UHGV virus genome: UHGV-0179380
DNA: 54,525 bases
Direction: 5' to 3' (one strand)
Source of the DNA: a virus
Shown here: piece after piece, positions 28,658 through 28,994 of the stretch
Layout of the letters: each line of letters opens with the position of its first letter
Position numbering within the stretch: position 1 is the stretch's first letter
Notes under the pieces: generated by a model
The model's input: only the letters and a program-made list of their open reading frames with translations
Told to the model about the DNA's origin: nothing
Databases searched by the model: none
Translations under genes and position numbers: made by a program

Positions 28658-28994
28658 CAGAATATTCCTCTATCCTGAAAAATATAACCCCCGCAAAACT
28701 CGACACCGCAGGGAGTGAAAACAGCTATAAAACACTGAAAACGGCGCTTAGTGAGTACCGTTTGCAGAATTTTATAAAACTGGACCTGCTTAACATCTCT
28801 GATAAACAGATCCGGGCGCTCTTCCTACACATGGCAGGTGAGTTAATGGCGCTTTCTTCTACCCAGGTAGCGCCGACCTGTTAATGGGACTGTTGATCCG
28901 GTATTACGTGTTTTTGACTTTTCCGCCGTCGCTCGCGGGAAGGATTGGCCCGGTTATGGCTGGCTGGCGGAAACGGCGACACGTCCACGCACTG

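Follow-up and report, generated by a model that had tools for sequence, protein, structure and literature searches.

What lies in the 337 nucleotides (nt) that separate Rz, the last gene of the lysis cassette, from the gene for an HExxH protein in the virus genome UHGV-0179380? An earlier note on this DNA had described the interval as an unexplained non-coding gap, and its size and position are exact: it runs from 28658 to 28994 of the window (by which we mean the whole 54,525-nt stretch that was analysed), between the TAA stop codon of Rz and the ATG of the HExxH gene. The region around it is as tightly packed as had been said, with adjacent genes that abut or overlap. All genes around the gap are on the minus strand, as is the Q antiterminator gene (PF03589; 35724-36452) upstream of it, so the gap is to be read on the minus strand, inside the long rightward/late transcription unit. 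Coordinates below refer to features read on that strand unless we say otherwise.

We found that the gap holds a conserved, structured non-coding RNA of 147 nt, which we call region A (28848-28994), and downstream of it a predicted intrinsic (Rho-independent) terminator, T1 (28725-28777). Region A begins directly after the upstream stop codon. We give roughly even odds (0.5) to the reading that region A and T1 together form a transcribed non-coding module that acts as RNA-level punctuation between the lysis cassette and the genes for the HExxH protein, packaging and the head.

The gap is non-coding

The gap holds no convincing open reading frame (ORF), as the earlier note had stated; the longest are 35–41 amino acids. 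In relatives these ORFs are broken by frameshifting insertions and deletions of 1–3 nt, several relatives have in-frame stops in both the 35-amino-acid sense frame and the antisense frame (the window's 41-amino-acid ORF), and the variable columns are spread over the codon phases as 10/12/8, which shows no periodicity. For these reasons the small coding sequences that Phanotate/PHANOTATE-like pipelines have called here in relatives (MagusPhagus CDS0061/0062, mEp010_77, mEp013_65 and others) are not credible, and we rejected them.

Folding of the whole gap gave a z-score of -2.36 for the minus strand (1/100 shuffles) and -0.91 for the plus strand (17/100 shuffles). A hairpin quoted in the earlier note, ggcgctttcttctacccaggtagcgcc, is present on the plus strand at 28848-28874, but it had been read on the non-transcribed strand; on the minus strand the corresponding sequence is the reverse complement, GGCGCUACCUGGGUAGAAGAAAGCGCC. 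By itself, as a 58-nt domain, this hairpin has an unremarkable folding energy (z = -0.68). The case for it comes from conservation and from a single compensatory change, G-C to A-U, seen in L104 and L117 (such numbers are our handles for relatives), and not from energy.

Region A is a conserved structured RNA

Nucleotide diversity (pi) is 0.049 in region A and 0.016 in its apical region. For the endolysin, Rz and HExxH genes it is 0.20–0.27 at third codon positions and 0.02–0.14 at first and second positions. Region A is therefore 4–5 times more conserved than the synonymous sites of the flanking genes, and the constraint on it is comparable to that on first and second positions of protein-coding sequence. 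Region A is under strong selection at the RNA level.

We studied the fold in an alignment of 49 distinct region A sequences (alignment A3), which includes divergent ones reached via distant HExxH homologues. Diversity in it is low, with a mean column identity of 92%. Two domains can be recognized. Domain 1 (28906-28984) consists of the helices P1 and P2 around a near-invariant, C-rich apical region of 38 nt (28928-28965). P1 pairs 28979-28984 with 28906-28911 and changes from A-U to G-C in L037 and L041, with two double changes in L107. P2 pairs 28966-28973 with 28920-28927; four of its pairs have changed on both sides and there are 19 U.G intermediates. A triple GCCA repeat, GCCAGCCAGCCA (28957-28968), spans the 3' edge of P2 and the apical region and is reminiscent of tRNA 3' ends.

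Domain 2 is a three-way junction of helices Ha, P3 and Hb (28860-28903). Ha (28900-28903 with 28860-28863) changes from A-U to G-C in L012, L052, L118 and L136, has G.U pairs in L005 and L047, and has no mismatches at all. The P3 hairpin (28896-28899 with 28887-28890) changes from A-U to G-C in 10 sequences, and in L027 and L105 a 2-nt insertion lengthens the stem. Hb (28876-28880 with 28864-28868) is invariant except for one G.U pair. A fourth helix, P4, is the hairpin of the earlier note and pairs GGCGCU (28869-28874) with AGCGCC (28848-28853); it carries the G-C to A-U change in L104 and L117 and has G.U pairs in L052 and L001. The first 9 nt of the P4 loop are the 3' strands of Hb and Ha, and an A-rich strand, GAAGAA, follows at 28854-28859. 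Because Ha and Hb use the P4 loop, domain 2 is probably an H-type pseudoknot built on a three-way junction, as far as can be judged from sequence. The 3' strand of P4 could instead pair with GYGC at the 5' end (28989-28992), which is the pairing that RNAalifold prefers. The double change in L104 and L117 favours P4, though not decisively.

Several controls bear on this fold. Across the helices 97.5–98.1% of cells are paired, and when partners were slid by 1–3 columns this fell to 30–46%. Nine to ten pairs have changed on both sides, as compared to about 3.0 in column shuffles, and none of 500 shuffles reached 9–10. RNAalifold recovered P1, P2, P3, Ha and Hb without hints. Many of the pairs are G.U, which would become C.A mismatches on the opposite strand, so we take the functional molecule to be the sense RNA, and not DNA or an antisense transcript. 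The small-RNA half of the earlier note's suggestion is supported in a broader form, as a conserved structured RNA of the sense strand with covariation behind it. With its covarying helices and invariant core, region A has the features of a conserved sensor-type domain of the kind found in riboswitches and attenuators.

T1 and the remainder of the gap

T1 is the most conventional feature of the gap and had been overlooked in the earlier note. By its anatomy and conservation we consider it to be a conventional intrinsic terminator. The core stem (28754-28767 with 28735-28748; 14 positions, two mismatches) closes a loop at 28749-28753 and is followed by a U-rich tract, UGUUUUAU (28727-28734), with 6 U in 8 nt. 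An A-tract upstream (28769-28777) can lengthen the stem. The folding energy is -11.3 kcal/mol for the core (z = -2.87) and -18.5 kcal/mol (z = -4.48) for the hairpin extended with the A- and U-tracts, which has 20–22 paired positions. The stem is maintained in the set of 35 distinct sequences, where pair 19-47 is GC in 26, AU in 6 and GU in 3, and pair 23-43 is GC in one. The lower stem stays paired in relatives through U.G changes. The U tract is near-invariant, with A-to-G at one position in 2/35 distinct sequences. The loop is hypervariable and four of its five columns vary, the second being an invariant A. T1 is not new, as the same bases are already predicted terminators in public GenBank records (TERM_6 of mEp021 and T11 of mEp013, from ARNold and TransTerm-type predictions). 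It was found in every relative with a readable stretch, even where the flanks have been replaced.

Between region A and T1 is a spacer of 64 nt (28784-28847) that contains a 58-nt insert, which folds into two hairpins. About two thirds of the relatives lack this insert, and we regard it as dispensable because the short forms show several different deletion junctions. On the non-transcribed strand this insert also has a boxA-like sequence, CGCTCTTCC (28817-28825, plus strand), which is probably there by chance.

Downstream of T1 is T2 (28678-28714), which consists of a hairpin (28688-28714; -11.8 kcal/mol, z = -0.88) and then UUAUAUUUUU (28678-28687). T2 may be either a further terminator-like element, weaker than T1, or a hairpin in the 5' untranslated region. 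Relatives have it in three versions, one of which (UUCCUG/CAGGAA) lacks the U tract; in L021 it is replaced by an HNH gene. The last 65 nt of the gap (28658-28722) are its least conserved part (pi 0.185). The Shine-Dalgarno region (AGGAUAGAGGAA) and the HExxH ATG (together 28655-28676) were read from the sequence, and the start is kept in all relatives.

Distribution and behaviour as a unit

The phage in the window is, judged by sequence identity, an mEp021-like (mEpimmI) phage of Escherichia coli. It is closest to Escherichia phage MagusPhagus (96.9% identity across 1.6 kb) and is about 91% identical to mEp021, mEp010, mEp013, mEp044, mEp515 and mEp554. The mEpimmI group has been described as Nus-dependent, non-lambdoid temperate coliphages with reported N-like and Q-like antitermination, and as being as frequent as lambdoid phages among human gut isolates (PMC11893012).

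The gap sequence is present in 7/7 GenBank phages of the group and in 35 of 5,426 complete E. coli genomes, where it is always single and always chromosomal. It is also in 24 metagenome contigs and in 47 IMG/VR contigs; these last are the same contigs that carry the HExxH gene, and only these. Two different patterns gave 0 matches to the element in 185,579 species-representative genomes. All HExxH homologues above about 60% identity, and all TerS (small terminase) homologues above about 80%, come from E. coli. Outside the group, the closest TerS relatives (at most 51% identity) belong to unrelated phages that are not syntenic and gave no match to the region A model. Region A is confined to the mEpimmI group and is single-copy.

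Region A and T1 were present in every member examined that had a readable stretch. Relatives carry extra genes on either side of the pair. Between Rz and region A there is an ORF of 100 amino acids in L009 (1913-2215) and in L113 and L114 (923-1225), and one of 200 amino acids in L106 (2129-2731); none of these has a Pfam match on record. Downstream of T1, L021 has an HNH gene directly adjacent to the start of the HExxH gene. We saw no gene between region A and T1 in the relatives examined, and only the dispensable spacer varies there. Since extra genes occur only outside the region A–T1 interval, the two travel as one unit. When the whole unit is folded as a consensus, region A and T1 form structures that are independent of each other.

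The slot between Rz and region A looks like a moron-type insertion hot spot. The segment from lysis to terminase also has free-standing HNH (HNH_3/AP2) genes in L021 (1913-2485), L104 (1752-2273), L105 (4250-4753) and L002, which is mEp013 (857-1342). Among relatives the slots they occupy are after T1, at endolysin/Rz, at TerS/TerL and after the HExxH gene, a pattern that looks like repeated invasion by homing endonucleases.

Known RNA classes

Covariance-model searching, which the earlier note had suggested as a check, matched no known family. With the Rfam 15 models there were 0 matches on the gap alone at E up to 10, and none within the gap in a 4-kb scan. The model of region A found one copy in the window at 189.7 bits; the next best score was 9.7 bits, so there is no second copy of region A in the window. 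ARAGORN found no tRNA or tmRNA. A literature search gave nothing relevant on prophage small RNAs at this position, and a text-word check of the group's 2025 paper (PMC11893012) found nothing on this gap. Region A has neither an Rfam family nor an annotation and appears to be undescribed. A cos site would not be expected here, as the Sf6-type TerS points, if indirectly, to headful packaging. The TerS gene is 1.5 kb from the gap, and the G.U-type covariation points to RNA and not to DNA.

Proposed explanation

We propose that a polymerase leaving Rz, or leaving a gene inserted after Rz, would transcribe region A and then the optional hairpin spacer before it reaches T1. An unmodified polymerase would stop at T1. 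This would yield transcripts of the lysis cassette, or a processed fragment of about 210–270 nt, with a compact structured 3' end. A polymerase modified by Q, or by the N-like Gp17 with Nus factors, would read through and allow expression of the HExxH, terminase and morphogenesis genes. We infer that T1 terminates and that the Q- or N-modified polymerase overrides it from the anatomy of T1 and from established lambdoid biology. Region A most likely acts in cis at this checkpoint, in the stability or processing of the 3' end or in the binding of a factor, and it may accumulate as a stable late non-coding RNA; this whole role is our inference. The observations from which we start are that the gap is non-coding and conserved, that its helices are those of the sense strand, that the anatomy of a terminator is conserved, and that region A and T1 travel together. 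The invariance of region A and its probable pseudoknot call for a specific partner, protein or RNA, or a specific activity.

Several points weigh against this explanation. Diversity in the alignment is low, and much of the covariation in P1 and P2 comes from one divergent lineage, L107. The shuffle control for covariation ignores phylogeny and shared ancestry. The stem of T1 has two mismatches, because of which a simple terminator scan missed it. Termination at T1 and a stable RNA species are both predictions. A partial stop between lysis and structural genes would also be counter-intuitive unless read-through is efficient. Finally, a mere terminator or 3' stabilizer would need neither a near-invariant 38-nt loop nor a pseudoknot, so region A is probably more specific in function than that.

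Alternative explanations

For region A we rank a cis-acting 3'-end or checkpoint element highest, then a conditional attenuator, a trans-acting RNA, an RNase III-type site, a nut- or put-like site and a promoter, in that order. A conditional attenuator, riboswitch-like or controlled by a protein, is possible but improbable. Region A would then sense a ligand, or a protein of the phage or of the host, and so set how much transcription passes T1. The layout is the classical one, with a pseudoknotted, aptamer-like fold and an invariant core directly upstream of an intrinsic terminator, and the 3' strand of P4, AGCGCC, recurs in the 3' strand of T1, so that alternative pairings can be drawn. However, neither the consensus fold, nor the spacer, nor the covariation of P4 revealed a conserved pair of mutually exclusive terminator and antiterminator structures. 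The consensus fold has no pairing between region A and T1, and because of the dispensable insert the distance between them varies, with values between about 8 and about 66 nt. The strands of P4 co-vary in L104 and L117 (GGCAC/GUGCC) while the copy in T1 stays AGCGCC. The antiterminator drawn between the 5' strand of P4 and the 3' strand of T1 is thus not maintained, and we rejected it. The lack of an Rfam match also speaks against a switch of this kind, which a Q-modified polymerase would moreover ignore. It is likewise doubtful that the stretch from region A to T1 is a trans-acting non-coding RNA, either processed from the late transcript or derived from its 3' untranslated region, that acts on other RNAs or titrates a protein such as Hfq or a host defence or nuclease factor. 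In its favour, the element is a discrete module with its own terminator that moves as a unit, the T1 hairpin is flanked by an A/U-rich stretch and a U tail, and invariant motifs that look single-stranded are present: (ARN)3-like AGAAGAAAG, the triple GCCA and pyrimidine-rich CCAAUCCUUCCC. On the other hand, there is no upstream promoter, the upstream sequence changes where other genes have been inserted, and the U tail UGUUUUAU is short and interrupted. Among the transcripts of the phage itself, the only ones compared, we found no complementarity of at least 14 nt. There are a few matches of 12–14 nt in the phage, two of them complementary (12–13 nt), which is within chance for a 54-kb genome; the one we inspected is a same-sense repeat in coding sequence.

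A site for RNA processing or retroregulation, of the lambda sib/tI or T7 RNase III kind, is a weaker candidate that we consider quite unlikely. In read-through RNA the T1 hairpin would form a duplex of about 20 bp that RNase III could cut, which would uncouple the stability of lysis mRNA from that of morphogenesis mRNA. The extended hairpin does reach about 20 bp (z = -4.5), U.G changes keep its lower stem paired, and its anatomy suggests that the full stem is possible only in RNA that continues past the U tract; cleavage itself would be a prediction from the modelled fold. But the symmetry of A-tract, hairpin and U-tract is also how bidirectional terminators look, and region A would be left unexplained. 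We think it very unlikely that the element is a loading site for antitermination, whether a fourth nut-like site for Gp17 and Nus factors or a put-like RNA that makes polymerase terminator-resistant before T1. It does lie directly upstream of terminators, and an extra nut site, nutR2, has been reported for the mEpimmI group (PMC11893012). A boxA-like decamer, CCCAUUAACA (28879-28888), resembles the boxA of nutR1, CUCAUUAACA, which occurs exactly in some relatives, and it is followed by a stem-loop with GAAGA in its loop. However, the window has 2 such boxA-like motifs where 0.43 are expected, a count that 8/100 shuffles reach, and local alignments of nutR1, nutR2 and nutL to the gap score inside the shuffle range. 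The hairpin after the motif has a 15-nt loop and a distance of 4–6 nt, unlike the boxB hairpins of this phage, which have 4–5 bp, loops of 4–7 nt and a distance of 7–8 nt from boxA. In the supported fold, CAGGU of the putative boxA is paired and the hairpin loop is paired elsewhere. We set a nut-like site aside, as neither the motif count nor the alignments are significant. We also rejected a put-like RNA, since the best match of the region A model in the HK022 immunity region, where putL and putR are expected, is 4.8 bits (E = 0.67), the window has a single copy and no promoter is nearby. The other half of the earlier suggestion, an internal promoter in the gap that drives the HExxH, mini-peptide and terminase genes, is the explanation we find hardest to credit. 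A promoter downstream of T1 would be useful, and there are weak -10-like hexamers 26–39 nt before the ATG (TATATT in the window and TATAAA in the alternative version). But two scans found no sigma-70 -35/-10 pair with a 16–18-nt spacer on either strand of 28658-28994, and the 65 nt between T1 and the ATG, besides being the least conserved of the gap, are replaced wholesale in relatives, including by the HNH gene. An activator-dependent promoter could escape an analysis of sequence alone.

The preferred reading remains a module of region A and T1 that punctuates the late transcript in cis. We also see some chance, although a small one, that region A is a new functional class of RNA whose direct target, at the boundary of lysis and packaging, is either transcription or the transcript that carries it. 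It could be a put- or riboswitch-like device with a new fold that binds a factor or polymerase and controls passage through T1, or an RNA of a new kind that cuts the late mRNA in two, by self-cleavage or as a processing element.

On the evidence of alignment and covariation, region A is a new RNA motif, conserved within one group of coliphages and restricted to it. It adds a covariation-supported motif with a probable pseudoknot to those absent from Rfam. A strongly conserved non-coding element exactly at the lysis/packaging boundary is a testable handle on the timing and balance of late expression in mEpimmI phages. Should termination or processing prove to be under the control of region A, a new regulatory device would have been found in a host that is well studied.

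Neighbouring genes

Upstream of the gap are the endolysin gene (29453-30025) and Rz with Rz1 embedded in it (28995-29483; stop codon at 28995-28997). Downstream are the HExxH ORF (28115-28657; ATG at 28655-28657), the Sf6-type TerS (26689-27174) and the large terminase (25208-26692). The HExxH protein has no Pfam match and belongs to a family seen only in phages and prophages of E. coli; a source labels one relative, at 62% identity, 'PolyVal Metallopeptidase superfamily domain'. Between the HExxH gene and TerS is a string of hydrophobic mini-ORFs of 25–67 amino acids (27185-28118) that vary in number and identity among relatives.

The transcription unit of the gap has two other terminators on the same strand. 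One, a strong intrinsic terminator at 30171-30189 (ACCCGGCACCGCGCCGGGT then TTTTGCTTTG), is just upstream of the holin ribosome-binding site and corresponds to TERM_5 of mEp021. The other, also strong, is at 33797-33816, in an extra block between Q and the holin gene that also has plus-strand ORFs and promoter-like matches. The distance from Q to holin is 5.6 kb in the window (30146-35724) as compared to 2.0 kb in mEp021. The nut sites of mEp021 can be recognized in the window by their boxA and boxB: nutR1 at 45255-45315 (minus), nutR2 at 37835-37900 (minus) and nutL at 46520-46585 (plus).

Comparison with known systems

The lambdoid late-operon terminators, and lambda pR'-6S RNA-tR' among them, resemble our proposal in that a terminator within a long operon of a Q-encoding phage is overridden by modified polymerase, and a short structured RNA ends at it. 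Here, in contrast, we found no promoter or Q-loading site, the element follows the lysis genes and does not lie between Q and holin, and a large, conserved and probably pseudoknotted fold takes the place of a simple leader.

In lambda tI/sib, flanking sequence lengthens the hairpin of the terminator, and the resulting long duplex is present only in read-through RNA. The T1 hairpin could likewise be extended by its flanks into a duplex confined to read-through RNA, which RNase III might then cleave, but sib has no counterpart of region A. The put RNAs of HK022 are cis-encoded, structured and directly upstream of terminators in a temperate coliphage; there are two copies of them and they are promoter-proximal. 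Region A is similar in being a cis-encoded structured RNA immediately before terminators. It differs in having no model similarity to put, in its single copy, in not being promoter-proximal and in being about twice the size, and the mEpimmI group is Nus- and N-dependent.

The nut sites of lambda and mEp021 (PMC11893012) are comparable in layout: the phage has an N-like protein, and ahead of terminators there is a boxA-like decamer and then a stem-loop whose loop is rich in A. The resemblance is not statistically significant, however, neither the spacing nor the loop fits a nut site, and here the 'boxA' is in part base-paired. Attenuating riboswitches and protein-binding leaders are similar in that a conserved domain, with an invariant core and a (here probable) pseudoknot, is followed by an intrinsic terminator. 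Unlike them, region A has no conserved antiterminator pairing, a variable spacer and no Rfam family, and it lies between genes of a late operon and not in a 5' leader behind a promoter.

We also compared the element with phage morons and with small RNAs derived from 3' untranslated regions. Like these, it is self-contained, brings its own terminator and is set between late genes at what looks like an insertion hot spot. Unlike a moron it has no promoter and no ORF, so its cargo would be an RNA, and it is universal in its group where morons are sporadic.

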